Of a stretch of DNA of 64,000 nucleotides, positions 4,268-19,621 are shown one piece after another. The stretch lies in NCBI GenBank assembly GCA_947085095.1, contig CAMTVD010000004.1, positions 32,001 through 96,000 on the forward strand. The letters are read 5' to 3'. The DNA comes from an uncultured Thermus sp. (GTDB taxonomy: Bacteria; Deinococcota; Deinococci; Deinococcales; Thermaceae). How positions within the stretch are numbered: the stretch's first letter is position 1; each line of letters opens with the position of its first letter. Both the position numbers and the translations under genes were made by a program. The notes under the pieces were generated by a model. The model was given only the letters and a program-made list of their open reading frames with translations. It was not told the DNA's origin and ran no database searches.

Positions 4268-4768
4268 GTGGTCGTCTTGGGCGTTGATCCTGGCATCACC
4301 CACCTGGGCCTGGGGGTAGTGGACGTGGAGGCCAAGGGGGCCTTGAAGGCCCACCTTCTCCATGGGGAGGTGGTGAGAACCACGCACAAGGAAAGGGCCC
4401 AGGAACGGGTGGGCCGCATCCACACCCGGGTGAGGGAAGTCCTTCTCCGTTTTCGCCCCGAGGCCCTGGCGGTGGAGGAGCAGTTCTTCTACCGGCAAAA
4501 CGAGCTGGCCTACAAGGTGGGCTGGGCCCTGGGGGCGGTGCTGGTGGCGGCCCACGAGCTAGGGGTGCCCGTCTACGCCTATGGTCCCATGCAGGTGAAG
4601 CAGGCCCTGGCGGGACACGGCCATGCGGGTAAGGAGGAGGTGGCCCTGATGGTCCGGGGCATCCTGGGCCTAAGGGAGGCCCCCAAGCCCAGCCACCTGG
4701 CGGATGCTCTGGCCATCGCCCTCACCCACGCCTTCTACGCGCGGTTGGGCAGCGCTAAACCCCTTTAG
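4268..4768 (+). CDS. ruvC: Holliday junction resolvase RuvC
   Basis: LGVDPG, AVEEQFF, QVKQALAGHGHAGKEEV and ADALAIA motifs. Confidence 0.95.
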   Translation: MVVLGVDPGITHLGLGVVDVEAKGALKAHLLHGEVVRTTHKERAQERVGRIHTRVREVLLRFRPEALAVEEQFFYRQNELAYKVGWALGAVLVAAHELGVPVYAYGPMQVKQALAGHGHAGKEEVALMVRGILGLREAPKPSHLADALAIALTHAFYARLGSAKPL

Positions 4769-5388
4769 AGCCATCCCCGGCGCACCGCATAGCGCAAGAG
4801 GTCGCTTCGGGACTTGAGGCCCAGCTTCTCCATACCCCGCTCCCGGTAAGTGGCCACGGTCTTTTCGGAAATCCCTAGCTTCTCGGCCACCTCCTTGTGG
4901 GAAAGACCTTGGGCCAGGAGGCAAAGGACCTCTTCCTCCCGGGGGGAAAGGGTTCCCTCGTCTACGGCTTCCTGAACCATCTCCATGGCCAGGCGCACGG
5001 CCAGGGCAGGGTTTAGGTATCGCTCCCCCCGGGCTACGGCTAGGACAGCGTCCAGAAGCTCGTGGTCCACGGCCGCCTTGCTCACGTACCCCTGCCCTCC
5101 GGCCTGGAGGAAGCCCCGCACGTACTCCGCGTCCTCGTGCATGGAAAGGGCCAGGAGCCTGAGCTCGGGAAACCGCTCCCGAAGCCTTTGGCAGAGGGCG
5201 ATGCCGGTGCCATCAGGAAGGGAGATGTCCAGGATGACCACGTCCGTCTCCACCCTCTCCAGGAGGTCCATGGCCTCCCGGCAGCTCCCCGCCTCCCCCA
5301 CCACCCGCACCGGCCCCTTAGCCTCCAGCAGGTGCCGGAGGCCGCTCCGCACCAAGAGGTGGTCCTCCACCAGCACCACCCGGATCAT
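4765..5388 (-). CDS. NarL/NreC-family response regulator (REC + LuxR HTH)
   Basis: VEDH...LDISLPD...LSMH receiver; LSPREEEVL...LGISEKTV LuxR HTH; coupled to the upstream kinase. Confidence 0.93.
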   Translation of the reverse strand: MIRVVLVEDHLLVRSGLRHLLEAKGPVRVVGEAGSCREAMDLLERVETDVVILDISLPDGTGIALCQRLRERFPELRLLALSMHEDAEYVRGFLQAGGQGYVSKAAVDHELLDAVLAVARGERYLNPALAVRLAMEMVQEAVDEGTLSPREEEVLCLLAQGLSHKEVAEKLGISEKTVATYRERGMEKLGLKSRSDLLRYAVRRGWL

Positions 5389-7079
5389 GCGGGCACCTCC
5401 AGGGGAAGCCTAACCTGTATCCGGGTTCCCTCGCCAGGGGCGCTTTCCAAGAAGAACCGCCCCCCCACAAGCTCCACCCGCTCCCGCATACCCCAAAGGC
5501 CCTGATGTCCAGAGCCCACCCCCTTGGGGTCAAACCCCCTCCCCTCGTCCTCCACGAAGACCCGCACTTCGCCCAAAACTTCCAACACCCCCACGGAGGC
5601 CCGGGGGCTTCCCGAGTGGCGGGCCACGTTGGTGAGGGCCTCCTGCACCACTCGGTAGACCACGATCTCCAGCTCCTTGGGCAGGGGACGGGCAAGGTGG
5701 AAGGAGAGGTCCACCTCTATCCCTGTGCGCTCGGCAAACTCCCGCACGTACCGCCGGAGGGCCGCTTCGAGACCCAGGTGGTCCAGGACGCTAGGCCTGA
5801 GGTCCAAGGCCAGGCGACGCACCTCGGCCAGGGTGTAGCGGGCAAGTTCCTTCAGGGCCTCCGCCCGATCCCCAGGGAGGCCCTCGAGGCCCAGGATCAG
5901 GCCAGTGAGGGCCTGCCCCACCTCATCGTGAAGCTCCCGGGCGATGCGCCCCCTTTCCTCCTCCTGGGCCTTCAGCCAGGCCTTGAGGAGCTCCGCCCGT
6001 TGCGCCTCCTTTTCCGCCAGGGCCTCGTAGAGGCGGGCGTTTTCTAAAGCGGTGGCCAGAGGGGCTGAGAGGGCCTCGAGGAAGGCCCTGAGCCAGGCCT
6101 CCCTCACCCCGGGCCGCCCATACAGGACCAAGGCCCCATGGGGAGGCACGGGAACCACCACTCCCTCGGACCGCACCACCACCTGTCCGTGGGCTAGGGC
6201 CTCCCGGACCATGGGGGCCACCTCCCCTAGAGGGCAGCGGTCGCGGCAAGCCTCGCAGTGGAGCACCCGCCCGCCGAGCCAGAGGTCCCCGCAGGTAAAG
6301 CCGAGCTCACGCACGAGAAGAGCAAGAACCCTCTCGGAAAGGGTCTTTAGATCCAGAGCGTGCATCTCGGCCAGTACCCGGTTCAAAAGCCTCAGGTCCC
6401 GCTCCCGCCGCTCCACCTCGGCCCCCATGGCGTTAAGCGCCCTTCCCAGAGTGCCAAGCTCATGGGGGGGCTCAGGAAAACGGGCCGACTGCCCCTGCCC
6501 CAGGCGCCCAGCCTCCTGGACCATCAGGGAAAGAGGCTCCAGGAGACGGGTAAGAAACAGGTAGCCTAGACCTCCTCCCAAGCCCACGGCCCAAAGAAGC
6601 CCAAAAACGCCCGTGCGCAACACCTTGAAGAATTCCGCTAGCAAAGGGGTCCGCTCCAGGGCGAGGCGCACCACCCCCGCCTCCCCTCCCATGATCCCTG
6701 CCTCCACCTGGTATACAACCTTCCCAGAAACCTGCAGGACCCGCTCCCCATCCAAGCGGGCCAGGGCCTCAGGCACCCCCTCGGCCAGGGTATGGGCCAC
6801 CACCTCCCCCTGGGAGTTCAGGATGTAGGCGTAGGCCAGGTGGGGGTAACGGTCCTCGAGGTGGCGGAGCTTCTCCTCCACAGACAGCCGATCGGAAAGC
6901 AAAAGATCGTCCAGGACCAGAAAGGACAGATCCCGGGCTAAGCCCCGGGCCTCCTGCCAAAGGGCCCGTTCCCCTTCCGCCAACAGGAAAAGCCCGCCCC
7001 CTATGATGAGCACCCCCCCCGTGGCCAGGGCTGTCAGCAAAGTGGTGAAGAAGAGCTGTTGGACCAGACCCCACCTCAT
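5385..7079 (-). CDS. Membrane sensor histidine kinase (periplasmic domain, HAMP, Cys-containing GAF-like region, HisKA_3, HATPase)
   Basis: Two TMs, HAMP (HELGTLGRALNAM), EERGRIARELHDEVGQ, QEALTNVARH, DEGRGF, GLWGMRERV. Confidence 0.93.
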   Translation of the reverse strand: MRWGLVQQLFFTTLLTALATGGVLIIGGGLFLLAEGERALWQEARGLARDLSFLVLDDLLLSDRLSVEEKLRHLEDRYPHLAYAYILNSQGEVVAHTLAEGVPEALARLDGERVLQVSGKVVYQVEAGIMGGEAGVVRLALERTPLLAEFFKVLRTGVFGLLWAVGLGGGLGYLFLTRLLEPLSLMVQEAGRLGQGQSARFPEPPHELGTLGRALNAMGAEVERRERDLRLLNRVLAEMHALDLKTLSERVLALLVRELGFTCGDLWLGGRVLHCEACRDRCPLGEVAPMVREALAHGQVVVRSEGVVVPVPPHGALVLYGRPGVREAWLRAFLEALSAPLATALENARLYEALAEKEAQRAELLKAWLKAQEEERGRIARELHDEVGQALTGLILGLEGLPGDRAEALKELARYTLAEVRRLALDLRPSVLDHLGLEAALRRYVREFAERTGIEVDLSFHLARPLPKELEIVVYRVVQEALTNVARHSGSPRASVGVLEVLGEVRVFVEDEGRGFDPKGVGSGHQGLWGMRERVELVGGRFFLESAPGEGTRIQVRLPLEVPA

Positions 7080-7909
7080 GGCAGCACCTCCCGGGCCCGC
7101 AGGTAGACTCGGCGGTAAGCTTCTCCCGTAGCCGGAACAAAGCCTTTCAGGTACAGGGCCTCGAGGGCTTCCCTGCCCTTGGGCGTGGCTGCGAAGGCCA
7201 AGATGGCCTGGCGTATGCGCGCCTTGGCCTCAGGGGAGAGGCCCCGGCGCACCACCACCGGAGGGGCGGGGTCCTGCGGGCCCTGCCAGAGGAGGCGAAG
7301 CCCCCGCACCCCCAAGGCCTCGTACACCACCGCATCCACCGCCGCCCCCTCGGCCAGCCCCTCCTTCAGGGCCACCAGGGCCCGGTCGTGGCCGTAAGCG
7401 AAGAAGGCCCGGGCAAAGAAGCCCTCCCCTAAACCCCGGGCCGCCAGGCGGGGCCAGGCGTGCCCGGTGTTGGAAAGGGGGTCGGCGAAGGCAAAGGGCT
7501 TAGCAAAAAGCTGGGAAAGGTGCCGATAAGGGCTCCCCTCCCGCACCAGAATCAGGCTGCGGTAGGGGGTCTTGGGCTGAGTAGCCAGGATCACCTCCAA
7601 AAAACCCTCTTCTACCCCAATCCCTGCGGCTAGAGTGCAGACAAACCCCACCTCTGCCTCACCCCGGCGGAGGGCCTCGAGGACCCCCGCATAGGTCCTC
7701 CGGCCAAAGACCTCCACCCGCACCCCCAGCACCTCCCCCAGCCCCCGGGCCAAAACCCGGTAGGGCTCGGCCTCCTGGGGGGAGCGCATCCCCGCCACCA
7801 CCACCCGGATCTCCCCCCCCGCCACCCCCGCCCGGTAGGGTGGGGAAAGGGCTATCTCAGGGGGCTTGGCGCAGGCCCCCAGGAGAAGGAACAAGACGAG
7901 GAGCCTCAC
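7076..7909 (-). CDS. PhnD-fold oxyanion-binding lipoprotein (AioX/ArxX-like)
   Basis: Lipobox LLGAC, FVCT, YRSLILVR, FADPLSNTG, HDRAL, AAVD, PPVVV; GTG 7909 is 6 nt after TATTCT (ORF track start 7942); no ABC permease or ATPase nearby. Confidence 0.85.
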   Translation of the reverse strand: MRLLVLFLLLGACAKPPEIALSPPYRAGVAGGEIRVVVAGMRSPQEAEPYRVLARGLGEVLGVRVEVFGRRTYAGVLEALRRGEAEVGFVCTLAAGIGVEEGFLEVILATQPKTPYRSLILVREGSPYRHLSQLFAKPFAFADPLSNTGHAWPRLAARGLGEGFFARAFFAYGHDRALVALKEGLAEGAAVDAVVYEALGVRGLRLLWQGPQDPAPPVVVRRGLSPEAKARIRQAILAFAATPKGREALEALYLKGFVPATGEAYRRVYLRAREVLP

Positions 7910-7954
7910 TACCCCAGAATAGGAAAGGCTCAGGGGTATCAATGTCCCAAGGCC

Positions 7955-7974: not shown

Positions 7975-8046
7975 CCCCTGTCCCCCCTTCGGCGACTACC
8001 CTAGAGGAGCTGAGCCTCCTAGCCTGGGTGGGGAAAGGAGGTGGGT

Positions 8047-8883
8047 ATGGAAAAACACACCCCCATGAATCCGGAGGAGAGGCGGCGCTTCTTGGCCAAG
8101 ATGGCCAGCGCCGTCTTCGCCTCCATGCTGGCCCCCGGGCTGGCCCAGGGAGCGCCAAAGCCAGAGGCCCCGGAGCCCGTGAGCGAGGATGTCCTCCTCA
8201 GGATGCAGAAGGACTTGGAGCGGGCCCTTCAGAACCCCAAGCGCAAATGGGGCATGGTCATTGACCTTAGGAAGTGCGTGGGATGCCACGCCTGCACCGT
8301 GAGCTGCATGGCGGAAAACCGCCTGCCTCCGGGGGTGGTCTACCGCCCGGTGAGCGAGGAAGAGCTTGGAACGTACCCCAACGTCACCTACCGCTTCGTC
8401 CCCAGGCCCTGCATGCAGTGCGACGAGCCTCCCTGCGTCCCCGCCTGCCCCTACGACGCCACCTGGAAGCGGGCGGACGGCATTGTGGAGGTTGACTACG
8501 AGCTTTGCGTGGGATGCGAGAAGTGCATCCCTCCCTGCCCTTACGACTCCCGGCACATGGACTACGGGGAGTACTGGACGAAGGACACCCCGGGCAAAGG
8601 GAGGATGCCCTACGAGACCCTCCCCGGGTACGAGTGGAACAAGAAGGTGGCCCGGGAGGACGAGGCTGGCCCCATGGACAAGGTGCGCAAGTGCCACTTC
8701 TGCCTGCACCGCATTGAAAGGGGCCTTCTCCCCCAGTGCGTGACCACCTGCATGGGCCGGGCCACCTACTTCGGGGACCTCGAGGACCCCACCTCCCTGG
8801 TCTCCCAGCTCATCAAGAAGCCCAACGTGATCCGGCTTAAGGAAGAAGCGGGAACCAAACCCCGCGTGTACTACCTGGTGTAG
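8047..8883 (+). CDS. TtrB/NrfC-like 4x[4Fe-4S] electron-transfer subunit with Tat signal
   Basis: ERRRFL Tat motif; [40 protein letters not shown]...CVTTC; RBS AAGGAGGT before ATG 8047. Confidence 0.92.
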
Positions 8884-8892
8884 GAGGTGCGT

Positions 8893-11800
8893 ATGGAAAA
8901 GCTTTCCCGGCGGGAACTCCTAAAGCTCTCGGGCGCAGGCGCCCTCCTCGGGCCCTTGGGCCTCACCCTTCAGGAGGCCAGCGCCCAAGGCATGGGGGCT
9001 TACGAGGTGCAGCTTCCCGAGAACACCATCTACTCCTCCTGCCTCCAGTGCAACACCGGCTGCCCCATCAAGGTGAAGCTCTACGAAGGGGTGGCCAGCA
9101 AGATTGACGGTAGCCCCATCTCCCCTTGGACCTTCCAACCCCATCTGCCCACGACCACGGACCTGGCCACCCTGGCCAAGATAGACGGGACCCTCTGCCC
9201 CAGGGGCCAAGCGGGCATCCAGACCGCCTACGACCCCTACCGCATCCGCCGGGTCCTCAAGCGGGCGGGCCCCCGGGGCAGCGGCAAGTGGGAGGAGATC
9301 CCCTTCCACCAGGCGGTGAAGGAGATCGTGGAGGGGGGAAAGCTCTTCGCCCACCTGGGGGACGAACGCCACTACCCTGGCCTTAGGGAGGTTTGGGCCC
9401 TCAAGGACCCCGAGGTCATGGCCCGCATGGCCCGGGCGGTGCGGGACATCTGGGCGGAAAAGGACAAAACCAAGAAAAAGGCCCTGGTGGAGAAGTTTAA
9501 GGAGGACTTCAAGGAACACCTCCACACCCTCATTGACCCCAACCACCCCGACCTGGGCCCCAAGAACAACCAGGCGGTTTTCGCCTGGGGACGCCTGAAG
9601 GCCGGACGCCGGCACTTCATAGACTGGTTCTTTCAAAGCAGCCTGGGGACCGTAAACCTCCATGGGCACACCACCGTCTGCCAGGGCTCGCTCTACTTCG
9701 CGGGCAAGGCCATGAGCGAGCAGCCCACCTTTGACGCTTCCGGCAAGCTCTCCTGGTCGGGGGGAATGAAGTTCTACTGGCAGGCAGACCTCTCCAAGGC
9801 CCGCTTCGTGGTCTTCGTGGGGGCCAACATCTTTGAGGGCAACTACGGCCCGCCCCTGCGGGTGGGCTGGATCACGGAGAGGGTTTCCAAAGGAGAGCTG
9901 GAATACGCCATCGTGGACCCCCGGGGGCAGAAGGGGATCAAGGAGGCCAGCCGCTGGATCATCCCCAAACCCGGGCACGACGCCGCCATCGCCTTTGGCA
10001 TCATCCGCCTCCTCCTGGAGTGGGAGAAGTACGATGCCAAGTTCCTCTCCGCCGCCAACAGGGCGGCGGCTAGGGCCATCGGCGAGGCCAGCTGGTCCAA
10101 CGCCACCTGGCTGGTCAAGATGAAAGACGGCCAGCCGGAAAGGCTCCTCCGGGCCAGCGATCTGGGTCTTCCCAAGCCCAAGGCCAGGGTGGGGGACAAG
10201 GAGGTGGAGCTGGACGCCCCCGTGGTCCTGGTGAAGGGGAAACCCGTAGCCTTCAACCCCAACGACGAGGCCCAGGCGGTCTTCGGGGATCTCTTCGTGA
10301 ACACCCGGCTTTCGGGGATCCCGGTGAAATCCGCCCTGCAACTCATCAAAGAGGAAGCCTTCAAGCACCAGGTGCGGACCTGGGCAGCCTTCGCCGGGGT
10401 CCAGGAGGGGGACATCCGCTTCCTGGCGGAAAAACTAGCCCAGCACGGCAAGAGGGCCGTGGTGGACCTCCACCGGGGAACCAGCCAACACACCAACGGC
10501 TTCTACACGGTGGCCGCCTGGCTCACCATCAACGCCCTCTTGGGCAACCTGGACCACCAGGGCGGGTCCACCATGGGCTTCACCTACGACATCACGGGCG
10601 CCCGGGCGGGCGGCCCATTTGTAATGGCCCGGCTCCATCCCAAATCCCTAACCCCCTTTGGTGTCAGCCTCATCCGCCACGAGGTCAAGTACGAGGATAC
10701 CACCCTCTTCGCCGGCTTCCCCGCCAAGCGGCCCTGGTACCCCCACGCCTCCGACATCTACCAGGAGGTCCTGCCCTCCGCCGCCCAGGGCTACCCCTAC
10801 CCCATCAAGATCCTCTTCCACTACATGGGGGACCCTGCCTACGCCAATCCCGGGGGCCACGAGCAGATCCGGGCCATGCTGGACCCCGACAAGATCCCCC
10901 TGATCGTGGCCTTTGACATCGTGGTGGGCAACACCTACGCCTTCGCCGATTACATCATCCCCGACCTCTCCTATCTGGAGCGCTGGGAGTTCCAGGGTAC
11001 CCACTTCTCCATCCCCTGGAGGGTCCAGCCCGTGCGCCAGCCTGCCATCGCCCCCATCCCCGAGGAGGTGGAGGTCTTTGGCCAAAAGATGCCCATCTGC
11101 CTGGAAAGCTTCCTGATGGCGCTGGCGGAGCACATGGGCCTGCCAGGGTTCGGGGAAAAAGGCTTTGCCAACGGCATGCCCTTCACCCACATGGACCACT
11201 TCTACCTGAAGCTGGCCGCCAACCTGGCCTTTGGGGAAAGGGCCGATGGCACCGACGCCCTCCCCGAGGCCGACGAGGAAGAGCTCCGCGTCTTCCGCCA
11301 GGCCAGGCGCCACCTCCCCCCCTCGGTCTTCGAGGAGAAGCGTTGGCGGGAAGCCGTGGGCAACGAAAGCCTCTTCCGCCGGACGGTCTACCTCCTGAAC
11401 CGCGGTGGGCGCTTCCAGGAGTTCGCCAGGGTGTATGGCCCTGGCGGCCTCCTGACCAACCGCTACGGACGGCAGGTGAACCTCTTCTTTGAGAAGCAGG
11501 CCCTCTCCCTCCACCCCATGACCGGCAAACCTTACTGGCCGTTACCCGCCTACTTCCTCCCCTACCAGGATGCCCTGGGGCGGCAGCTCCGGGACCCCGG
11601 CTACGGCCTCACCCTCCTCACCCACCGCGACATCCTCATGACCAAGAGCCGCACGGTCTCCAACTACTGGCTGAGGAGCATCAAGCCGGAGAACGCCATC
11701 CTGGTGAACGTGGAGGACGCCAAGCGCCTGGGGCTGAAGGACGGGCAGCTGGTTAAGGTGGTCTCGGCCACCAATCCCAAGGGGGAGTGGGACCTCGGGC

Positions 11801-12078
11801 CCATGGGCCGTAAGCCCATGGTGGGGCGGGTCAAGGTGGTCCAGGGCCTGCGCCCGGGGTGCGTGACCTTCCCCTTGGGTTGGGGGCACTGGGGCTATGG
11901 GGCCACGGACCTGGTCATTAACGGCCAGGTCATCAAAGGAGACCCCAGGCGGGCCATGGGCATCCACGCCAACGCCGCCATGCGCCTGGACCCCTACCTG
12001 AAGGACATGGCCCTCACGGACATCGTGGGAGGTAGCGTGGTCTTCTACGAGACCAAGGTGAACCTGATCCCCGTGTAG
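8893..12078 (+). CDS. TtrA-like molybdopterin oxidoreductase catalytic subunit (tetrathionate/selenate/arsenate reductase clade), Tat-exported
   Basis: SRRELLK Tat motif; CLQCNTGC...LCPRG Fe-S motif; TtrA-like segments EIVEGGKLF, IDPNHPDLGPKNNQ, GEASWSNATWLV, ADYIIPDLSYLERW, GWGHWGYG; candidate Mo-ligand Cys in HTTVC. Confidence 0.9.
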   Translation: MEKLSRRELLKLSGAGALLGPLGLTLQEASAQGMGAYEVQLPENTIYSSCLQCNTGCPIKVKLYEGVASKIDGSPISPWTFQPHLPTTTDLATLAKIDGTLCPRGQAGIQTAYDPYRIRRVLKRAGPRGSGKWEEIPFHQAVKEIVEGGKLFAHLGDERHYPGLREVWALKDPEVMARMARAVRDIWAEKDKTKKKALVEKFKEDFKEHLHTLIDPNHPDLGPKNNQAVFAWGRLKAGRRHFIDWFFQSSLGTVNLHGHTTVCQGSLYFAGKAMSEQPTFDASGKLSWSGGMKFYWQADLSKARFVVFVGANIFEGNYGPPLRVGWITERVSKGELEYAIVDPRGQKGIKEASRWIIPKPGHDAAIAFGIIRLLLEWEKYDAKFLSAANRAAARAIGEASWSNATWLVKMKDGQPERLLRASDLGLPKPKARVGDKEVELDAPVVLVKGKPVAFNPNDEAQAVFGDLFVNTRLSGIPVKSALQLIKEEAFKHQVRTWAAFAGVQEGDIRFLAEKLAQHGKRAVVDLHRGTSQHTNGFYTVAAWLTINALLGNLDHQGGSTMGFTYDITGARAGGPFVMARLHPKSLTPFGVSLIRHEVKYEDTTLFAGFPAKRPWYPHASDIYQEVLPSAAQGYPYPIKILFHYMGDPAYANPGGHEQIRAMLDPDKIPLIVAFDIVVGNTYAFADYIIPDLSYLERWEFQGTHFSIPWRVQPVRQPAIAPIPEEVEVFGQKMPICLESFLMALAEHMGLPGFGEKGFANGMPFTHMDHFYLKLAANLAFGERADGTDALPEADEEELRVFRQARRHLPPSVFEEKRWREAVGNESLFRRTVYLLNRGGRFQEFARVYGPGGLLTNRYGRQVNLFFEKQALSLHPMTGKPYWPLPAYFLPYQDALGRQLRDPGYGLTLLTHRDILMTKSRTVSNYWLRSIKPENAILVNVEDAKRLGLKDGQLVKVVSATNPKGEWDLGPMGRKPMVGRVKVVQGLRPGCVTFPLGWGHWGYGATDLVINGQVIKGDPRRAMGIHANAAMRLDPYLKDMALTDIVGGSVVFYETKVNLIPV

Positions 12079-12083
12079 GCGCC

Positions 12084-12107
12084 TCCCCCCGGGGCAACCC
12101 GGGGGGA
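12084..12107 (+). terminator. 10-bp stem with GCAA tetraloop after ttrA-like gene; no U-tract, so possibly a stabiliser or partial terminator
   Basis: TCCCCCCGGG-GCAA-CCCGGGGGGA. Confidence 0.6.
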
Positions 12108-12153
12108 CAAACCTACCCGGATACCCGTGATAGCGTATGGATGGAGGGTTGCT

Positions 12154-12591
12154 ATGATCTCTGCGCTAAGAACTGCGCAAGACCCCACCCGCTTCGCTCT
12201 GGAGCTCATTCGCACGGTGATGCTCCTTCTGTGTCTGGTGGGCTGGGTCATGTACCCGTTGGAGCTCCTCTTGCTGGACCACTGGACCGAGGCCTGGCAG
12301 AGCCGCATCCCCTTTTTCGTAGCAGTACCCGGCTTCGTCTTCACCCTCTGGGTTCTCTTTGACCGGAAGACCCCCTGGGTGCGCTGGGCCTTCATCGTCA
12401 CCATGTGGGCCTCGGTGCTCACCGGGGTCCTCGGGGCCTACTTCCACCTGGTCTGGAACTTTGAGGGGGAGATCAGCTGGGAGTTTGAGGCCGCCATGGA
12501 GGCCATAGCGGGAAGCCGCCCGGTGCTGGCGGCCATGGCCTTCACCCACATGGGGGTAACTGGGCTCTTGAGCATTTACCGGGCCCGCTAG
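12154..12591 (+). CDS. 4-TM membrane protein A with conserved His (uncharacterised)
   Basis: RBS GGAGG before ATG 12154; hydrophobic helices; LLDHW, GAYFHLVWN, GSRPVLAAMAFTHMG. Confidence 0.85.
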   Translation: MISALRTAQDPTRFALELIRTVMLLLCLVGWVMYPLELLLLDHWTEAWQSRIPFFVAVPGFVFTLWVLFDRKTPWVRWAFIVTMWASVLTGVLGAYFHLVWNFEGEISWEFEAAMEAIAGSRPVLAAMAFTHMGVTGLLSIYRAR

Positions 12592-12601
12592 GAGGTGGCG
12601 G

Positions 12602-13045
12602 ATGATCGAGGCTCTCATTCGTGCCAAAACCGAGGAGGAAAGGCTCTTGGAGTTTTTGCGGAGCATCTTCCTGCTTATCGCCATGGTGGGCTTTATCTTC
12701 TATGGGATAGAGCACTGGATTTTGGACCACTGGACACCGGCTTGGCAAAGCCGCATCCCCTTCTACGTTTCCCTGGTGGGCTTTCCCCTGACCCTCCTTA
12801 TGTTCTTCCACCGGGGCAGGTGGGTCCGCTACCCCTTCCTCCTCTGGATGCTGGTCTCCGTGGTCACAGGAGTGGTGGGGGCCTACTACCACTTGCTTTG
12901 GAACGCCCAGGATGCGGAAGTAAGCCTATGGAGTCTTTCCGGCTTCCTCGAGGCCTTCAAGGGGAGCCGTCCGGTGCTGGCGGCCTTGGCCCACACCCAC
13001 GTGGGTGCCGTGGCCTTCATCGTGGGAATCACCATAAGGGACTAA
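12602..13045 (+). CDS. 4-TM membrane protein B, paralog of A
   Basis: RBS AGGAGG; ILDHW..WQSRIPF, GAYYHLLWN and GSRPVLAALAHTHVG shared with the upstream ORF. Confidence 0.87.
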   Translation: MIEALIRAKTEEERLLEFLRSIFLLIAMVGFIFYGIEHWILDHWTPAWQSRIPFYVSLVGFPLTLLMFFHRGRWVRYPFLLWMLVSVVTGVVGAYYHLLWNAQDAEVSLWSLSGFLEAFKGSRPVLAALAHTHVGAVAFIVGITIRD

Positions 13046-13057
13046 AAGGAGGCGGAG

Positions 13058-13612
13058 ATGAAAAGAGTGGTCTTCGGTTTCCTGGTGCTGGCCCTAGGTC
13101 TGGCCCTGGCGCAGGCCCCCAAGGTGGACGGAAAGATCGCCCCCGGGGAGTACGCCAAGAGCTACAAGCACGAGAAGAGCGGCATCACCCTCTACTGGAG
13201 CGTGGTGGGGGACACCCTCTACCTGGGGCTCGAGGGGGAGAGCAAGGGCTGGATCGGGATCGGCTTCCTCGGCGAGAAGACGGAGAAAAAGAAGGGAAGC
13301 GACAACTACCTCTTCTACATGGAAGGGGGGAAGCTGGTAGCCCTGGACATGTACCAGACCAAGCGCACCGGGGCTCCGGCGCTGGACGAAAGGGAAGGGG
13401 GTAAAAACTCCATCCTGGCTGCCGCCGCCACCTACGAAGGGGGCAGGTGGACCGTGGAGTTCAGCCGCAAGCTGAAGACCGGGGAGGCCACGGACGTGGA
13501 GATCGTCCCCGGGAGGAAGCTGATCCTCATGCTGGCCTACTCGGACAAAATGGACCCCAAGGAGGAGCACAAGAAGACCGATCGCTGGTACGTTGAGGAC
13601 TTTGCCTTCTAG
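13058..13612 (+). CDS. Secreted DOMON-domain protein (possible heme b protein)
   Basis: Sec signal (LGLALA-Q); TLYW...GWIGIGF...GSD...VEFSRKLKTG...H DOMON pattern; RBS AAGGAGG. Confidence 0.82.
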   Translation: MKRVVFGFLVLALGLALAQAPKVDGKIAPGEYAKSYKHEKSGITLYWSVVGDTLYLGLEGESKGWIGIGFLGEKTEKKKGSDNYLFYMEGGKLVALDMYQTKRTGAPALDEREGGKNSILAAAATYEGGRWTVEFSRKLKTGEATDVEIVPGRKLILMLAYSDKMDPKEEHKKTDRWYVEDFAF

Positions 13613-13624
13613 AGGGAACCCTTC

Positions 13625-13657
13625 GGCCCTGGGGTGGCCCCAGGGCCTTTTATTTTT
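13625..13657 (+). terminator. Rho-independent terminator closing the reductase operon
   Basis: GGCCCTGGGG-TGG-CCCCAGGGCC followed by TTTTATTTTT. Confidence 0.85.
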
Positions 13658-13666
13658 ACTAGCGGT

Positions 13667-13702
13667 TTATACCCTTGACTTTTATAAGCTCATAGGTACC
13701 AT
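13667..13702 (+). promoter_or_regulatory. Leaderless sigma-A promoter of the yeeE-like gene, overlapped by a TTATA-N11-TATAA repeat
   Basis: TTGACT (13675-80), 16 nt, TACCAT (13697-702), ATG 6 nt later. Confidence 0.6.
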
Positions 13703-13708
13703 GAGGCC

Positions 13709-14941
13709 ATGGAGCGGACGGCGCATCCCCAACCCCTAGCTCTCCTCTGCTTCCTCCTGGCTGCCCTTGGGCTTTCCTGGGCCATCCTGCAGGCCTCGGG
13801 CATCCGGCTCCTCCTGGCCTTCTTCGTGGCGGTCCTTCTGGGTCTGGCCCTCTTCCACGCCAAGTTCGGCTTTGCCTCCGGCTTCCGCCGCTTCCTCCTC
13901 ACGGGGGAAAGCCGCCTCTTAAGGGCCCACTTCCTCCTCTTCGCCCTCACCGCCCTCCTCTTCTTCCCCTTTCTCAAGGAGGGGGAGGTCCTCGGCCAGG
14001 CGGTGCAGGGCTTCGTGGTGCCCTTGGGAGTGGCCCTCCTGGTAGGGGCCCTCCTCTTCGGGATAGGGATGCAACTGGGGGACGGCTGCGCCTCCGGCAC
14101 CCTCTACCACACGGGAAGCGGGGATACCCGGGGGATTCTGGTCCTCCTGGGCTTCATGGCGGGCTCCCTCCTTGGGGTCTACCACCTCCCCTTCTGGCAG
14201 GGTCTTCCCGCCTTGGCCCCGGGAAGCGCCCTCACCTGGTTCCCCTCCCCCTACCTGGGCCTGCTCCTCTGGCTTGGCCTCATCGCCGCCCTCTACCTGG
14301 GAGTGAGCCTGGTGGAAAAGCGGCGCCGGGGGCGGATAGACCCCCTTTTCCGCCTCGAGGCCACCCATCCCCTTTTGGGCCCCTGGAGCCTGGTGGGTGG
14401 GGCGGTGGTCCTGGCCTTAGGTAGCCTCCTCCTTCTCCTCCTCCAGGGGCGGCCCTGGGGGGTCACTGGGGCCTTTGCCCTCTGGGGGGGTAAGCTGGCC
14501 GAGGCTTTGGGGGTTCCCGTCCTGGACTGGGCCCTCTTCCACAACCCCGCCTTCGCGGAAAAGCTGCAGGAAAGCGTTCTAAAGGACGCCACCAGCGTCA
14601 CCAACTTTGGCCTCTTCCTGGGAGCCTTTCTGGGGGCCGCCCTGGGCGGGGCTTTGCGCTTCCAGGACCTCAGGAAGATTCCCTGGAGCACCCACCTGGG
14701 GGTCTTCCTGGGCGGGGTGCTCATGGGCTACGGGGCCCGGCTGGCGGGGGGGTGCAACATCGGGGCCTACCTGGGAGGGACGGCCTCCTTCAGCCTCCAC
14801 GGACCCCTCTGGGGCCTCTTCGCCCTCCTGGGAACCGCCTTGGGCCTGCGCCTCAGGCCCCTCTGCCGTCTGGAGAACGAGGCCTTAGCACCGGAGGTAG
14901 CCCGGCAGGACCTCCTCCAGGGGCGTGGGGCGGGGGATTAG
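13709..14941 (+). CDS. YeeE/YedE (TsuA-like) thiosulfate/sulfur-compound transporter
   Basis: Multi-TM; FGFASGFR, GMQLGDGCASG, PWGVTG and GARLAGGCNIG signatures. Confidence 0.88.
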   Translation: MERTAHPQPLALLCFLLAALGLSWAILQASGIRLLLAFFVAVLLGLALFHAKFGFASGFRRFLLTGESRLLRAHFLLFALTALLFFPFLKEGEVLGQAVQGFVVPLGVALLVGALLFGIGMQLGDGCASGTLYHTGSGDTRGILVLLGFMAGSLLGVYHLPFWQGLPALAPGSALTWFPSPYLGLLLWLGLIAALYLGVSLVEKRRRGRIDPLFRLEATHPLLGPWSLVGGAVVLALGSLLLLLLQGRPWGVTGAFALWGGKLAEALGVPVLDWALFHNPAFAEKLQESVLKDATSVTNFGLFLGAFLGAALGGALRFQDLRKIPWSTHLGVFLGGVLMGYGARLAGGCNIGAYLGGTASFSLHGPLWGLFALLGTALGLRLRPLCRLENEALAPEVARQDLLQGRGAGD

Positions 14942-15748
14942 GGCCAAGACCTCCGGGGAAAGGGGGGCGGTGTTGCCCCCCTTCAGCATCACGTACTGGT
15001 CCTTGGTGAGGGGGGCGAAGGGCAGGGGGCTTAGGAGAGGCACCACCAGGTCCATGAGGGAAAGGGGGATGGGGAGGAAGGGCTTCCTCCGCCCCACCAC
15101 CTCCATCGCCTTCTCCAGGAGTTCCCGCAAGGTGTACTCCCTGGGCCCTACCAGGTCGTAAGACCCCAAGACGCCCCTCTCCAAGGCCTCCACGAAGGCC
15201 AGGGCCACGTCCCCCACATAAACGGGCCGGAAGGGGAAGCGGCCGTCCCCGATGAGGGGGACGAAGGGCAGGGGGTTGCAGACAAGCCCTTTGAGCACCT
15301 TGCCGAAGAACTCGTCCCCGGGGCCGAAGATGAGGCTGGGGCGGAAGATGGTCCAGGAGAGGCCGCTTTGCCGCACCACCTCCTCCCCCTCGGCCTTGGT
15401 CTCGTAGTAGCGGCTCCCCGTGCCCCGCCTCGCCCCCAGGGCGGACATGTGGAGGAGGCGGGCTACCCCGGCCCTGCGCATCCCCTCCACCAGGTTCCTC
15501 ACCCCTTCCACGTGCACCGCCTGAAAGGTCTGGGGGCCTTCCCGGATGATGCCCGCCAGGTAGATGGCGGCCTCCACACCCCTCAGGTCCGGAACCTCCC
15601 GGGTGATGTCCCCCAGGAGCCAGACCGCTCCCGGGGAAAGGTCCCTGGGCTTCCGGGAAAGGACAAGCGGGGTATGCCCCCGCTCCAGAAGAAGGGACAC
15701 CAGGGCCCGGCCCACGAACCCCGTGCCCCCCACCACCAAAACCCGCAT
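14885..15748 (-). CDS. NDUFA9-like atypical SDR (NAD-dependent epimerase family)
   Basis: GGTGFVG, HMSALG, YYETK, FRPSLIFGPGD; downstream of ldrP. Confidence 0.88.
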   Translation of the reverse strand: MRVLVVGGTGFVGRALVSLLLERGHTPLVLSRKPRDLSPGAVWLLGDITREVPDLRGVEAAIYLAGIIREGPQTFQAVHVEGVRNLVEGMRRAGVARLLHMSALGARRGTGSRYYETKAEGEEVVRQSGLSWTIFRPSLIFGPGDEFFGKVLKGLVCNPLPFVPLIGDGRFPFRPVYVGDVALAFVEALERGVLGSYDLVGPREYTLRELLEKAMEVVGRRKPFLPIPLSLMDLVVPLLSPLPFAPLTKDQYVMLKGGNTAPLSPEVLALIPRPTPLEEVLPGYLRC

Positions 15749-15749
15749 C

Positions 15750-16337
15750 CTAAGCGGCCTCCAAAACCCCTTCCGCCTCCTCCTCCAGGGCCCTCAGGTC
15801 CAGGAGGTAGACCCGGCGGTAGGCGGTGGCGATGAGGCCCTGGTGGCGCAGGTCCGAGAGGATCTTGGAAACGGACTCCCGGGTGGAGGCGGTGGCATCG
15901 GCAATCTCCTCGTGGGAAGCGGTGACGAAAAGGCCTTTCTCGTCCCGGAAGGAGGCCGGGGTGTCTGCCAGGAAGAGGAGGTAGCGGGCGATGCGGGCCC
16001 TGAGCTCCCCCGTCTGCAGGTGGGCCTCGTAGGCGTGAACCCGGCGCATCTGCCGGGCCAGGTTCCGGGCCACGGCGTGCAGGGCCTCGTGGTTCATGGC
16101 CCTGGGGTCAAAGCCCTGGACCAGCACCTCGGTCATGGCCTCGGCGGTGTAGCGGTAGCGCCTGCCCTCCAGGGCCTCTTCCCCGAAGTAGTCCCCAGGC
16201 AGGACGTGGCGGAGGGTGAGCAGGCGGCCGTCGGAAAGGAGTTCCACGATGCGCACCAGGCCCTCCTCGAGGCGGTACAGGGTGTGGGCGTTTTCGCCCC
16301 TCAGGTAGATGGTCTCCTTGCGGCCAAACCTCTTCAT
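15750..16337 (-). CDS. ldrP: CRP/FNR-family activator LdrP
   Basis: cNMP-binding fold (GDYFGEEAL), [21 protein letters not shown]; coupled to litR. Confidence 0.88.
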
Positions 16338-17191
16338 ACTGCCTTCCTTTCCCCCTCAAGGGGTTGCAAAAGCTCCTCCACCAAAGCTTCCAAACTCTCC
16401 ACGTGGCGGGCACCAAGCCTCTTGGCCTCCTCCGGCGAGGCCCCCTGCCCCCCCAGGTAGACCCGGGGCGCCAGCTGGGAAAGGGCCCCGTGGGGTAGGT
16501 CCTTCAGGGGCTCGGCCAGGAGGGCGGAGAGAACCACTCCCCTCGCCGAAAGCCGGGCCGCCAGGTTTTTCAGGTCGGCCAAGGGGGTATCGGGGCCCAG
16601 ATAGAGGGCGGGAAGCCCCCGCCGCCTCAGGGCGTAAGCGGCCAGCATGGCCCCGATCTCATGCCGCTCCCCTGGGGGCGTGGTGACCAGAATAGGGGGC
16701 CCCGGGGGGAAGCCCACCAGGTCAAGGAGCTCCTGGAGCCGGGCCCGGAGGAAGGTGGAGGCGAGGTGCTCCTCGGCCACCCCCACCTCCCCCCGGTGCC
16801 AGGACTCACCCACCCGCCTCAGCACCGGCACCAGAAGGCGCTTCAAGACCCCTTCCGGGCCCAGAAGCCTCAGGGCACGGCGAAAGAGGGCCTCGGCCTC
16901 CTGGAGGTCCACCCGCAAAAGGGCCCCGTAAAGCTGGGCCTCGAGGGCCTCCGGGTACACCTCCTGGGAAAGGTAGCGGCGGATGGCCGCCTGGGGGGTG
17001 GCCCCCTCCTCCAGCCAGCGGCGGATGGTCCTTAAGGCCTCCACCTCCTCTTGCCGGTAAAGGCGGTGGCCTCCGGAGGTACGCTCGGGCCGGGGAAAGC
17101 CGTACCGCCTCTCCCACTGCCTGAGGACCTCGGCGGAGAGGCCGGTCAAGCTTTCCACCTCGGCGATGGTGTACACCCCAGGACGGGTCAT
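16334..17191 (-). CDS. litR: AdoB12-dependent photoreceptor repressor LitR/CarH (MerR family)
   Basis: Mer[14 protein letters not shown]-x9-EH ([12 protein letters not shown]); ERHEIG B12-binding motif; divergent from crtB. Confidence 0.95.
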
Positions 17192-17197
17192 GCCCTT

Positions 17198-17242
17198 AGG
17201 ATAGGGGGGTGTTTAGACTTTGTCAAGGTCTTGTCCACCTCC
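17198..17242 (-). promoter_or_regulatory. litR promoter with CarH operator of three 11-bp direct repeats
   Basis: Minus strand TGGACA-N5-TTGACA-N5-TAAACA (TnnACA at 11-bp period); -35 TTGACA 17226-21, 17 nt, -10 TATCCT 17203-198, ATG 6 nt later. Confidence 0.85.
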
Positions 17243-17299
17243 ACAGTGTGGTCGGGACAAACATCCCTGCACCAGAAGCTAGAGTAGAGTCAAAGCAAG

Positions 17300-18133
17300 A
17301 TGACTATGGAACCCGATTGGAAAGCCCTATCCCGGGTTATCCGGGCCCACTCCGCCACCTTCTACTGGGGAAGCCGCCTCCTTCCCCCCCAGGCCCGGAA
17401 GGGAGCGTGGGCGGTCTACGCCGCCTGCCGCCTGGGGGATGAGGCGGTGGACGGGGAGGGCGGGGGCCCGAGGGCCCTTGCCGCCTGGTGGGAAGGGGTG
17501 GAGCGGGCCTACGGGGGCAGGCCCATGGAGGCGTGGGAGAAGGGCCTGGCCTGGGCTCTGGAACGCTGGCCCATTCCCTTTGAAGCCTTTCTGCACATGA
17601 GGGAAGGCTTCCTCACCGACCTGGGCCCCGTGCGCCTCAAGAGCGAGGCGGACCTCCTCACCTACGCCTATCGGGTTGCGGGCACCGTGGGCCGCATGAT
17701 AACCCCCATCGCCGGGGGCGGTCCTGAGGCCGAGGAAAAGGCCGTCCGCCTGGGCCAGGCCATGCAGCTCACCAACATCCTCAGGGACGTGGGGGAGGAC
17801 CTGGCCCAAGACCGCCTCTACCTGCCCGAGGAGCTTCTCCGGGCTTACGGGGTACGCCTGGAGGACCTCCTCGCCGCCCGGGTCACCCCAGGGTACCGGG
17901 CCCTCATGGCCTATCTGGAGGCAAGGGCCAGGGACCTTTACCGGGAGGGCCTCGGGGGCCTGCGGCACCTCAGGCTGGGGCGGGCGGCCATCGCCCTGGC
18001 CGCCCTCCAGTACCAGGGCATCCTGGACAAGCTCCGCCTCCAGCGGTACGACAACCTGCGCCACCGGGCCCACCTCAAGACCTGGGAGCGGCTCAAGCTC
18101 CTTCCCAAGGCCTTTTTGATGGCGAGGACATGA
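17300..18133 (+). CDS. crtB: Phytoene synthase
   Basis: HSATFYWGS, YAACRLGDEAVD, YRVAGTVG and QLTNILRDVGED motifs. Confidence 0.96.
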   Translation: MTMEPDWKALSRVIRAHSATFYWGSRLLPPQARKGAWAVYAACRLGDEAVDGEGGGPRALAAWWEGVERAYGGRPMEAWEKGLAWALERWPIPFEAFLHMREGFLTDLGPVRLKSEADLLTYAYRVAGTVGRMITPIAGGGPEAEEKAVRLGQAMQLTNILRDVGEDLAQDRLYLPEELLRAYGVRLEDLLAARVTPGYRALMAYLEARARDLYREGLGGLRHLRLGRAAIALAALQYQGILDKLRLQRYDNLRHRAHLKTWERLKLLPKAFLMART

Positions 18134-19383
18134 ACCTGGTTTGGCACCGCGGGGACCTGCGCCTAAAAGACCACCCCGCTCTCCTCGAGGCCCTGGCCCA
18201 GGGGAAGGTGGTGGGCCTCGTGGTCCTGGACCCCAACAACCTGAGGACCTCCCCCAGGAGGAGGGCCTGGTTTTTGGACAACGTCCGGGCCCTGCGGGAG
18301 GCCTACCGGGAGCGGGGCGGGGCCCTCTGGGTGGTAGAGGGCCCTCCCTGGGAGGTGGTTCCCCAGGTGGCCCGAAGCCTGAAGGCCAAGGCCGTCTACG
18401 CCCTGAGGAGTTACACCCCCTACGGCCGCCACCGGGATGAAAGGACCCAGGAGGCCTTGGAGGTCCCCCTTCACCTCCTCCCCGCCCCCCACCTCGTCCC
18501 CCCGGACCTCCCCCGGGCCTACCGGGTCTACACCCCCTTTAGCCGGAACTTCCAGGGTGTAGAACCGCCCCTCCCCGCCCCTGAGGCCCTGCCCCAGGCC
18601 CCGGAGGAAGGAGAGATTCCCCAGGAGGACCCCGGCCTCCCCCTGCCCCAGCCCGGGGAAGAAGCCGCCTGGGCTAGCCTCCAGGCCTTCTTGGACACCC
18701 GGCTCCCCCGCTACCCCCTGGAGAGGGACCGCCTGGACGGGGAGGGGGGCTCGAGGCTCTCCCCTTACTTCGCCCTGGGGGTCCTCTCCCCCCGGGAGGC
18801 GGCATGGGAGGCCCTGAGGCGGGGGGGCGAGGGGGCGAGGAAGTGGGTTTCCGAACTCATCTGGCGGGACTTCTCCTACCACCTCCTCTACCACTTCCCC
18901 GAGATGGCCCAAAGGGCCCTGGACGGCCGGTTTGAGGCCCTCCCCTGGGCGGAGGACGAGGAGCTTTTCCAGGCCTGGTACCGGGGAAAGACCGGGGTGC
19001 CCCTGGTGGATGCCGCCATGCGGGAGCTTCGCGCCACGGGCTTTCTCTCCAACCGGGCCCGCATGGCCGTGGCCCAGTTCGCCGTGAAGTACCTCCTCCT
19101 CCCCTGGCAGAAGGCGGAGGAAGCCTTCCGCCACCTCCTTTTGGACGGGGACCGAGCGGTGAACCTCCAGGGCTGGCAGTGGGCGGGAGGCCTGGGGGTG
19201 GACGCCGCCCCTTACTTCCGGGTCTTCAACCTGGTGGAGCAGGGAAAGCGGCACGACCCTGATGGAACCTGGCTTCGCCGCTTCGCCCCAGAGTACCCCT
19301 CCTACGAGCCCAAGGACCCCGTGGTGGACCTGGGGGAGGCCCGCAGGCGCTACCTGGCCCTGGCCCGGTCCTTGGCAAAGTAG
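18130..19383 (+). CDS. phr: CPD DNA photolyase
   Basis: WHRGDLRLKDHPAL, SRLSPYF, GKTGVPLVDAAMREL, WQWAGG, PYFRVFN. Confidence 0.95.
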   Translation: MNLVWHRGDLRLKDHPALLEALAQGKVVGLVVLDPNNLRTSPRRRAWFLDNVRALREAYRERGGALWVVEGPPWEVVPQVARSLKAKAVYALRSYTPYGRHRDERTQEALEVPLHLLPAPHLVPPDLPRAYRVYTPFSRNFQGVEPPLPAPEALPQAPEEGEIPQEDPGLPLPQPGEEAAWASLQAFLDTRLPRYPLERDRLDGEGGSRLSPYFALGVLSPREAAWEALRRGGEGARKWVSELIWRDFSYHLLYHFPEMAQRALDGRFEALPWAEDEELFQAWYRGKTGVPLVDAAMRELRATGFLSNRARMAVAQFAVKYLLLPWQKAEEAFRHLLLDGDRAVNLQGWQWAGGLGVDAAPYFRVFNLVEQGKRHDPDGTWLRRFAPEYPSYEPKDPVVDLGEARRRYLALARSLAK

Positions 19384-19427
19384 CAGGGAACCCACTCCCC
19401 CCTACCCCTGCCCGGTACCCTGGTTCT

Positions 19428-19607: not shown

Positions 19608-19621
19608 AGTATCTTGGCCCC

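Follow-up and report, generated by a model that had tools for sequence, protein, structure and literature searches.

This analysis concerns a 64,000-nucleotide stretch of DNA from an uncultured Thermus sp. (contig CAMTVD010000004.1, positions 32,001 to 96,000; hereafter "the window") and three adjacent genes within it, called here memA, memB and the DOMON gene. The first two encode paralogous four-helix membrane proteins, and the third an exported protein of the DOMON type. The conserved unit is memA-memB-DOMON, which is autonomous and more widely spread than the molybdoenzyme beside which it lies in the window. That enzyme, composed of an iron-sulphur (FeS) subunit and a catalytic molybdenum (Mo) subunit, resembles tetrathionate reductase (Ttr) and lacks the NrfD-type membrane anchor (TtrC) kept by its nearest paralogues. 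Comparative evidence for replacement of the anchor is good, and the three-gene module has probably taken its place. We propose that the module acts as a modular membrane-to-periplasm electron link standing in for TtrC in this enzyme, a reading whose chances we consider to be even.

Loss of NrfD from the linked enzyme

The lineage of the Mo subunit takes in tetrathionate, selenate and archaeal arsenate reductases, as described in PMC7331816. Against the NCBIfam equivalog model for TtrA (NF011567) the subunit reached 402 bits, short of the cut-off of 1750, and the FeS subunit reached 178 bits against TtrB, below the 416-bit cut-off. The best sequence match of the Mo subunit in the PDB was PsrA (2vpw_A, 4.4e-26). 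"Ttr-like" here names a lineage, and tetrathionate is one candidate substrate.

For the genome survey, 364 Deinococcota genomes were searched, taking E <= 1e-10 as a match to the memA/memB family and E <= 1e-100 as a match to the Mo subunit. Note that these genomes include close kin and that the counts are not independent. Mo-subunit matches were found in 32 genomes and fell into three groups. Type 1, with 69-100% identity to the window's protein (P0004), occurs in 15 genomes (G000, G202, G203, G206, G208, G211, G213, G216, G217, G222, G223, G227, G229, G233 and G175), all of which are among the 54 that carry the memA/memB pair. Type 2, with 63-68% identity, occurs in seven Thermus genomes and in six to seven genomes of genus g5 (Meiothermus-like).

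The two types differ in their membrane subunit. PF03916 (NrfD) is absent from the window's contig, the genome's two matches lying on contigs C20 and C18, and in all ten further type-1 genomes searched the type-1 Mo gene was likewise without a match nearby. The FeS gene is followed directly by the Mo gene in the window and in loci L002, L006, L008, L025 and L117. Type 2 has the order FeS-NrfD-Mo in all five cases examined (L114, L115, L116, L119 and G202) and is also present in nine genomes without the pair (G232, G209, G230, G189, G195, G188, G191, G179 and G199). A 48%-identical enzyme in another family (L118) has NrfD too. Type-1 FeS subunits are 62-65% identical to those of the NrfD-containing paralogues, and a comparison of type-1 with type-2 FeS subunits gave no domain-level difference suggesting an altered docking surface. 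In a ten-row tree of Mo subunits, the five NrfD-less rows form one clade (support 94/93) beside the NrfD-containing Thermus and Meiothermus rows, and L118 is a long branch.

Physical linkage to the pair was found for 13 of the 15 type-1 enzymes, in two gene orders. In 12 genomes memA starts no more than ~90 nt past a Mo gene of the same strand, and in G175 (L025) the order is memAB-DOMON-cupin-FeS-Mo. The G222 assembly is too fragmented for linkage to be decided; the remaining genome, G233, is taken up below. The original prediction, that the pair sits where an anchor is expected in a locus without NrfD, was thus borne out. Co-occurrence with molybdoenzymes held in one direction, every NrfD-less enzyme being found with the pair, but not in the other, since most genomes with the pair lack the type-1 enzyme. 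Because the NrfD-less enzymes all occur with the pair and are mostly linked to it, and because the paralogues keep NrfD and occur without the pair, the anchor has probably been replaced. On the simplest history, NrfD was lost once, in a lineage already equipped with memAB-DOMON, and physical linkage to the module came afterwards.

The memA-memB-DOMON module across genomes

Twenty-nine loci were fetched from species-representative genomes; contig ends truncate four of these loci (L020, L025, L028 and L029). Every locus whose contig reaches far enough has both paralogues, and the DOMON gene directly follows the pair in 27 of the 29, the exceptions (L016 and L028) stopping at the contig edge. In the genome survey, 51 of the 54 genomes with the family have two or more side-by-side matches. 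FeS and Mo genes accompany the module in only five of the 29 loci (L002, L006, L007, L008 and L025), so that the pair is not the Ttr-specific subunit that it had been taken for.

The paralogue tree was built from 25 A copies (memA), 25 B copies (memB) and 6 distant sequences. All 25 A copies form one clade (support 94/85) and 24 of the 25 B copies another (83/87), each repeating the same lineage order; the second copy of L027 groups on the A side. The two clades and their repeated lineage order point to a single ancient duplication after which neither copy was lost, the pattern that an obligate heterodimer would give. The predicted heterodimer is therefore consistent with the tree.

Other redox genes take the place of the molybdoenzyme in several loci. 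A pentahaem cytochrome c gene (5 CXXCH) lies immediately upstream on the same strand in three Meiothermus loci (L009-L011), as does a gene for an EB_dh-domain protein in L012 (Armatimonadetes), L015, L027 and L028. In L013 and L014, genes for decahaem cytochromes are found 0.4-2.6 kb downstream of DOMON, on the other strand. No adjacent redox gene was found in L001 (Thermus igniterrae), L003 (T. tenuipuniceus), L005 (T. arciformis) or, by Pfam, several Trueperaceae (L017, L018, L022 and L023). In T. arciformis ruvC directly precedes memA, so that the genes for the response regulator (RR), histidine kinase (HK), solute-binding protein (SBP), FeS and Mo subunits of the window behave as a five-gene cassette placed between ruvC and memA.

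Sequence and predicted structure of memA and memB

The two proteins are identical at 68 of 141 positions (48%; E 5e-43 by BLASTP), far beyond chance. Both contain LDHWT(E/P)AWQSRIPF, TGV(L/V)GAY(F/Y)HL(V/L)WN and GSRPVLAA(M/L)A(F/H)TH(M/V)G, in agreement with the earlier description of four-helix paralogues sharing three motifs. An AlphaFold2 model of memB (predicted local distance difference test, pLDDT, 92.3; predicted template-modelling score, pTM, 0.84) has four long helices (residues 11-40, 48-69, 73-105 and 125-144), with a shorter one on the surface (112-119). Loop charges, assessed in 25 orthologues of each paralogue, indicate that the N-terminus and loop 2-3 face inwards, and loops 1-2 and 3-4 outwards. 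Since H43 lies just past helix 1 and H97 near the end of helix 3, both His residues would be at the periplasmic face.

Three His residues had been described as conserved in both proteins. Two of these hold throughout the family: E37, H43, H98 and N102 (memA numbering) are invariant in 25/25 memA orthologues, and H43 and H97 (memB numbering) in 23/23 close homologues. The third, H133, is invariant in 25/25 memB orthologues but is replaced by Asn in 7/25 memA orthologues; it is not conserved among wider relatives and is thus clade-specific. A wider alignment was made from 137 sequences 120-235 amino acids (aa) long, out of 146 considered. In memB numbering, position 37 is acidic in 136 of these (Glu in 114, Asp in 22), and the other conserved residues are H43 (132 sequences), P53 (133), G90 (127), G93 (137), H97 (137), N101 (121) and P124 (129). 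G90, G93, H97 and N101 share one face of helix 3, and the superfamily signature can be written E-x5-H ... G-x2-G-x3-H-x3-N ... P-x-L-A-P. Each protein has two conserved His residues, H43 and H97, which the model and the loop charges place with E37 and N101 on the periplasmic side. With every conserved polar residue on the same side of the membrane, a dihaem wire running across it in the manner of NarI or FdnI is excluded, and at most one haem layer on the periplasmic side could be accommodated.

The family and its distant relatives

No Pfam or NCBIfam model reached its cut-off with memA or memB (no Pfam match was found up to E 0.1), sequence searches of the PDB gave nothing below E 2, and Foldseek comparison of the memB model with the PDB gave no match at E <= 0.001. 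A wide VIA-align search with the same model returned generic four-helix bundles only. The best Z, 11.3 for a copper storage protein, is below the ~13 that is common for helical bundles, and no fold was assigned. The family is accordingly uncharacterised, as had been stated; the further description of it as cytochrome-b-like found no direct support in these generic matches or in the two conserved His residues per protein. A word-indexed search gave 64 homologues of ~145-175 aa without Pfam domains, nearly all named "hypothetical protein", the named sources being Thermus, Meiothermus and one Armatimonadetes metagenome-assembled genome (MAG). Matches in a protein atlas were unnamed "hypothetical protein" clusters from Deinococcota and Chloroflexota. 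A literature search, covering full text outside subscription journals, turned up no publication dealing with this family, with a DOMON-linked Ttr-like enzyme or with tetrathionate reductase in Thermus.

When 1.84 billion representatives were searched by profile, 160 clusters (50% identity) matched at E <= 1e-3, only 9 of them below 1e-10. Profile-profile comparison joins the close and distant groups in one superfamily (probability 99.4%, E 5e-22), and none of 38 distant members scanned against Pfam reached a cut-off. In one distant relative, P0199 (291 aa), two such domains are naturally fused in tandem; a search of the close family for longer, fused proteins was negative, which is weak evidence. 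A search with the broad alignment A5 of 251 genomes from the phylum of G364 (titled Thermoleophilia MAG, and holding L029) gave one match. For metagenomes, a narrower alignment (A6) was used; 80 loci were kept (L034-L113), and the 43 whose contigs reach past the match were examined. In 26 of these soil-metagenome loci (e.g., L038 1900-2511), the single copy has after it, on the same strand, a gene for a lipoprotein of ~200 aa with two helix-hairpin-helix (HhH) motifs. The four-helix gene and the HhH-lipoprotein gene are an undescribed conserved gene pair. In nine of the 43, a Ser/Thr kinase gene precedes the single copy. In an actinobacterial genome (G371; L122 1080-2394), an OmpR-type winged-helix DNA-binding domain (Trans_reg_C, 4.8e-14) forms a single protein with the four-helix domain, and a gene for a small lipoprotein similar to the metagenome lipoprotein precedes this fusion, which would make a one-component regulator, membrane-bound and based on the same fold. 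These lipoprotein-linked and OmpR-fused relatives indicate that the fold with its E/H/H/N residues is a membrane module for binding ligands or cofactors in general, which the clade of Deinococcota and Armatimonadetes uses with the DOMON protein. Haem, quinone and metal would each be compatible with this.

The DOMON protein

The third protein of the module matches PF03351 (67.4 bits, cut-off 32.7) and PF09459 (36.0 bits, cut-off 33.3), and reaches 13.6 bits against the NCBIfam gamma-subunit model, whose cut-off is 169.85. It carries a Sec-type signal peptide. Its profile matches NxrC (7b04_C), the haem-b subunit of anammox nitrite oxidoreductase, with E 2.9e-5. The AlphaFold2 model (pLDDT 91.2) is all-beta, and Foldseek matched it to the DOMON domain of DBH, the cytochrome domains of cellobiose dehydrogenase (CDH) and pyranose dehydrogenase, and EbdC (2ivf_C), with E from 9e-6 to 3.5e-4. 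Haem-b cytochrome domains make up eight of the ten best Foldseek rows; CBM9 sugar-binding modules were weaker. By these similarities the DOMON protein likely binds haem b.

Axial haem ligands are Met and His in CDH and Met and Lys in EbdC. Among 27 DOMON sequences H171, K78, D82 and D97 are invariant, H38 almost invariant and the Met positions (M88 and M98) variable. The ligand pair may differ from those of both CDH and EbdC.

Proposed mechanism

In the proposed scheme, memA and memB would form a pseudo-symmetric heterodimer of four-helix proteins, each with a cytoplasmic N-terminus, and together with the Sec-exported DOMON protein would couple the membrane to the periplasm as an autonomous three-gene module. 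In the reductive direction, menaquinol would be oxidised in the conserved periplasmic-face pocket of each protomer, lined by E37 (where helix 1 ends), H43 (in the loop after it) and, along one face of helix 3, G90, G93, H97 and N101. Electrons would then pass to the haem b of the DOMON protein, as the first soluble carrier, and from there to a periplasmic redox partner. This partner would be interchangeable; in the window and 14 other genomes it would be the NrfD-less molybdoenzyme of the TtrB/TtrA lineage that is exported by twin-arginine translocation (Tat), for which the module would take over both docking and quinone coupling from TtrC. The original prediction had electrons passing straight to the TtrB-like subunit, in whose place the DOMON protein is the more likely first acceptor. 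Reverse flow is equally possible if the enzyme is a dehydrogenase.

The nature of the membrane site is a separate question. One haem b per protomer, held on the periplasmic side by H43 and H97, with E37 and N101 serving in quinol deprotonation, is the preferred but tentative assignment, with the chances somewhat against it. The main alternative is a quinol site that is free of cofactor, like that of NrfD, or has a non-haem metal, and feeds the DOMON haem directly. A more far-reaching version, which we think doubtful when taken whole, would put memAB beside NrfD and dihaem cytochrome b as a third kind of module that couples periplasmic molybdoenzymes to the membrane: a heterodimer from a widespread, unannotated cofactor-binding superfamily, with a periplasmic His/Glu quinol site in which each protomer would have its own haem or both would share a non-haem metal, as the L/M pair of type II reaction centres does. 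Its haem-b DOMON carrier would serve the Ttr-like enzyme, multihaem cytochromes c and EB_dh proteins, and the same fold would be a redox or ligand sensor in other phyla.

Weighing the alternatives

Several findings weigh against an electron link through memAB. Profile searches of Pfam, NCBIfam and the PDB found no similarity to any haem-b, haem-handling or quinone-binding family; the memB model places H43 in a loop rather than a helix; and the Met/Lys or Met/His ligands are not obviously conserved in the DOMON protein. About half of the loci have no redox gene nearby, and the metagenome relatives beside lipoprotein and kinase genes, like the OmpR-type fusion, speak against a purely respiratory role of the fold. 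The tie to the enzyme has its own gaps: 39 of the 54 pair-bearing genomes, including six of the 19 Thermus genomes with the pair, have no type-1 enzyme, and in G233 the NrfD-less enzyme and the pair are on different contigs. Because the module is far more widespread than the enzyme and ruvC adjoins memA in T. arciformis, the adjacency in the window could mark an insertion site and not a functional link. On this account memAB-DOMON would have a job of its own, such as general supply of periplasmic reductant or iron reduction, and the Ttr-like cassette would merely have been inserted alongside, its NrfD-less enzyme being soluble or peripheral and served by a periplasmic cytochrome c or by NrfD in trans. 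The exact fit of the cassette between ruvC and memA agrees with this, as do the GC-rich hairpin in the Mo-memA spacer and another NrfD gene elsewhere in every type-1 genome checked except G175 (69% complete). An accident of insertion does not, however, lead one to expect that all 15 NrfD-less enzymes would be in genomes with the pair, 13 of them linked in two gene orders, or that the closest paralogues would keep NrfD and do without the pair. The junction itself, with a same-strand gap of 75 nt, no T-run terminator and RNA-library contigs that bridge it (weak evidence), also argues for a joint unit. We regard accidental proximity as improbable, while giving it more weight than either of the explanations that follow.

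The strict memA-memB-DOMON linkage, whatever the redox neighbour, would also be seen if memAB served the DOMON protein itself, by handling haem b or another cofactor at the outer face of the membrane for the unfolded, Sec-exported apoprotein, or by tethering it, with no electrons passing through memAB. The haem-handling proteins CcmC, CcmF and CcsA have external His residues and a Trp-rich loop, of which the conserved His pair and Trp-containing loop (HW-x3-WQ) at the periplasmic face of memAB are reminiscent. The Trp residues are only partly conserved, however (W48 in 74 of the 137 wider relatives), no similarity to a known haem-handling family was detected, and the same conserved site is found in relatives without a DOMON partner. 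An assembly factor would also leave unexplained how the NrfD-less enzyme reaches the quinone pool, and we give this role the smallest chance of the three. Very slightly better placed, and still quite unlikely, is a part in ligand or metal sensing or transport, in which the invariant Glu, two His and Asn clustered at the top of the bundle would form a non-haem metal site (2-His-1-carboxylate type) or a small-ligand site, with the DOMON protein as extracytoplasmic binding partner. The OmpR-type fusion of a distant member, the upstream kinases in the metagenome loci and a Fur-family gene upstream of the module in L017 are in keeping with sensing. Yet memA and memB have no cytoplasmic output domain, their neighbours in the Deinococcota clade are redox proteins and not regulators or transporters, and the loss of NrfD would be unexplained.

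Comparison with known systems

Complex iron-sulphur molybdoenzymes are textbook cases of modular respiratory enzymes, whose membrane subunit is assumed to be of one of two kinds, NrfD-like or a dihaem cytochrome b. The latter alternative, exemplified by NarI, FdnI and PhsC, has four His residues at two depths; memA and memB differ in having two conserved His each, at the periplasmic end, and match neither the NarI (PF02665) nor the FdnI/Ni_hydr_CYTB (PF01292) profile. The NrfD anchors (TtrC and PsrC, the latter in PsrABC, 2VPZ) are closer in position, being the membrane partner of a periplasm-facing, Tat-exported pair of TtrB/TtrA type. NrfD consists of two four-helix bundles related by a twofold axis, with a quinone site and no redox cofactor, as described in PMC8076601. 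memA and memB would together also make two four-helix bundles, the eight-helix sum being an analogy only. They differ from NrfD in being two separate proteins of ~145 aa rather than one of ~410 aa, in always accompanying a DOMON protein and in occurring also without any FeS or Mo partner. A split NrfD was considered and rejected: neither protein matches PF03916, and hhalign of alignments A1 and A5 against an alignment of six NrfD proteins of these genomes gave probabilities of 0.1% and 0.35%.

The DOMON protein invites comparison with the gamma subunits of type II dimethyl sulphoxide (DMSO) reductases (EbdC and NxrC), in which an alpha-beta molybdoenzyme likewise exchanges electrons via a haem-b beta-sandwich subunit. 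Here the catalytic subunit belongs to the Ttr/Srd/Arr lineage and not to type II, and the DOMON protein brings its own two membrane proteins and has an invariant His171 and variable Met. In eukaryotic CYBDOM proteins, which are fusions of cytochrome b561 and DOMON, a membrane redox domain is similarly coupled with a haem-b DOMON domain outside the cytoplasm. Cytochrome b561 comprises six helices, its four His residues holding two haems on opposite sides of the membrane, whereas memA and memB have four helices and two one-sided His residues each, are encoded by unfused genes and have no match to the Pfam b561 model. Two further systems offer precedents in outline: MsrQ (YedZ), a small membrane protein that passes quinol electrons to the periplasmic molybdoenzyme MsrP (YedY), and SdhC with SdhD, two related small subunits that jointly hold one haem and a quinone site. 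No sequence similarity to memA or memB was detected for either, and helix numbers and His patterns differ.

The locus shows a recent, phylogenetically traceable loss of NrfD, and as the NrfD-less clade is confined to genomes with the pair and the DOMON gene, it offers a testable case of anchor replacement. If correct, the proposal would give a first function to a family without a Pfam or NCBIfam model and a bacterial counterpart to the eukaryotic b561-DOMON electron relays. It also bears on how haem-b DOMON/EB_dh subunits such as NxrC and EbdC-like proteins connect to membranes. Thermus, being genetically tractable and thermostable, is suited to both biochemistry and structure determination.

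Locus layout, transcription and neighbouring genes

Coordinates of the locus are collected in Table 1. GC content in the window ranges from 0.61 to 0.71, and the closest protein matches are Thermus proteins with 86-97% identity. The 2-kb bin with the lowest GC content, 12001-14000 (0.614, vs 0.63-0.71 elsewhere), is the one with memA, memB and the DOMON gene.

Table 1. Positions, strands and supporting matches of features in and around the FeS-Mo-memA-memB-DOMON unit of the window
Feature	Position	Strand	Evidence or remark
LuxR/NarL-type response regulator (RR)	4765..5388	-	Pfam Response_reg 7.4e-24, GerE 5.3e-19; part of the five-gene Ttr-like cassette
HisKA_3 histidine kinase (HK) of the cassette	5385..7079	-	Pfam HisKA_3 3.9e-13, HATPase_c 8.1e-13
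Periplasmic phosphonate-bd-type solute-binding protein (SBP), likely co-sensor of the cassette	7076..7942	-	Pfam Phosphonate-bd 2.8e-44
TtrB-like four-cluster ferredoxin (FeS) subunit with twin-arginine motif ERRRFLAK	8041..8883	+	Fer4_11 3.3e-19
Catalytic molybdenum-bis(pyranopterin guanine dinucleotide) (Mo-bisPGD) subunit, 1063 aa, TtrA/SrdA/archaeal-Arr lineage, Tat signal SRRELLK, NrfD-less type 1	8887..12078	+	Pfam Molybdopterin, Molydop_binding, Molybdop_Fe4S4
GC-rich inverted repeat CCCCCCGGGG-caac-CCCGGGGGG, without T-run, in the 75-nt Mo-memA spacer	12086..12108	.	Read directly; not scored as terminator
memA, 145-aa four-helix membrane protein, A paralogue	12154..12591	+	Translation; ATG at 12154, GGAGGG 8-9 nt upstream
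memB, 147-aa four-helix membrane protein, B paralogue	12602..13045	+	Translation; AlphaFold2 model
Sec-exported DOMON/EB_dh-type protein, candidate haem-b carrier	13058..13612	+	PF03351 1.7e-18, PF09459 1e-8
Intrinsic-terminator-like hairpin (13625-13647; 10-bp stem, 9 GC pairs) then TTTTATTTTT	13625..13657	+	Ends the FeS-Mo-memA-memB-DOMON unit
Promoter-like site	13675-13702		Upstream of the YeeE/YedE gene
YeeE/YedE-family sulphur-compound transporter, neighbour and not core	13709..14941	+	PF04143 2.3e-59

No T-run terminator was found between the Mo gene and memA, and a strong one follows the DOMON gene. RNA libraries from four runs, taken from four hot-spring or mat metatranscriptome studies with strains ~90-99% alike, gave contigs that cover 29-30 of 30 bins across 8000-13700. 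Two contigs bridge the 3' end of the Mo gene, memA and the start of memB (X3 record 23, 12031-12702; X4 record 30, 11948-12702), and another covers memA-memB-DOMON (X1 record 8, 12134-13442). The contigs weakly favour joint transcription; they cannot prove a single transcript or rank expression, and such libraries can hold DNA. In related strains represented by the X3 and X4 contigs, there is a 21-nt insertion just behind the memA start codon (12155) together with small indels in the Mo-memA spacer (12079-12097), so that the extreme N-terminus of memA and the spacer hairpin vary between strains.

The SBP, HK and RR genes (4765-7942, minus strand) diverge from the FeS-Mo genes, and beyond them lie ruvC and then the ftsQAZ genes. 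The trio resembles the TtrS/TtrR control of tetrathionate reductase; it, or parts of it, also flanks the type-2 and G233 enzymes (L114, L116, L117 and L118). Downstream of the module, the YeeE gene was considered as a member and rejected: it adjoins the triad in only six of the 29 loci, all Thermus, and the terminator-like hairpin and promoter-like site intervene. Farther downstream (14885-21492) is a light-response and carotenoid cluster with an NAD-epimerase-like gene, a CRP-family regulator, a MerR/B12-binding (CarH/LitR-like) regulator, phytoene synthase, photolyase, a P450 and a lycopene-cyclase-domain gene. Those regulators recur beside the module in L001 and L003.

Other enzyme loci have companions of their own. 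The type-2 locus L115 (4067-12444; G189, Meiothermus-like) is flanked by a low-molecular-weight (ArsC-like) phosphatase, an ArsP-type permease, thioredoxin and ArsR, a hint that the substrate of this lineage may be arsenate and not tetrathionate. A protoglobin-family gene (PF11563, E ~1e-27) follows the Thermus type-2 enzyme on the same strand in L114 (6330-6881), L116 (6017-6634) and L119 (6341-6970), which is unusual company for a Ttr-like operon. Directly downstream of the unlinked NrfD-less Mo gene of G233 is a gene for a DUF4397 protein (L117 6196-6858; PF14344, 9.4e-53). Finally, the DnaB helicase gene of L116 (3396-6020; G210) has an intein bearing a LAGLIDADG endonuclease domain, and its orthologue in L114 (444 aa) is without one.

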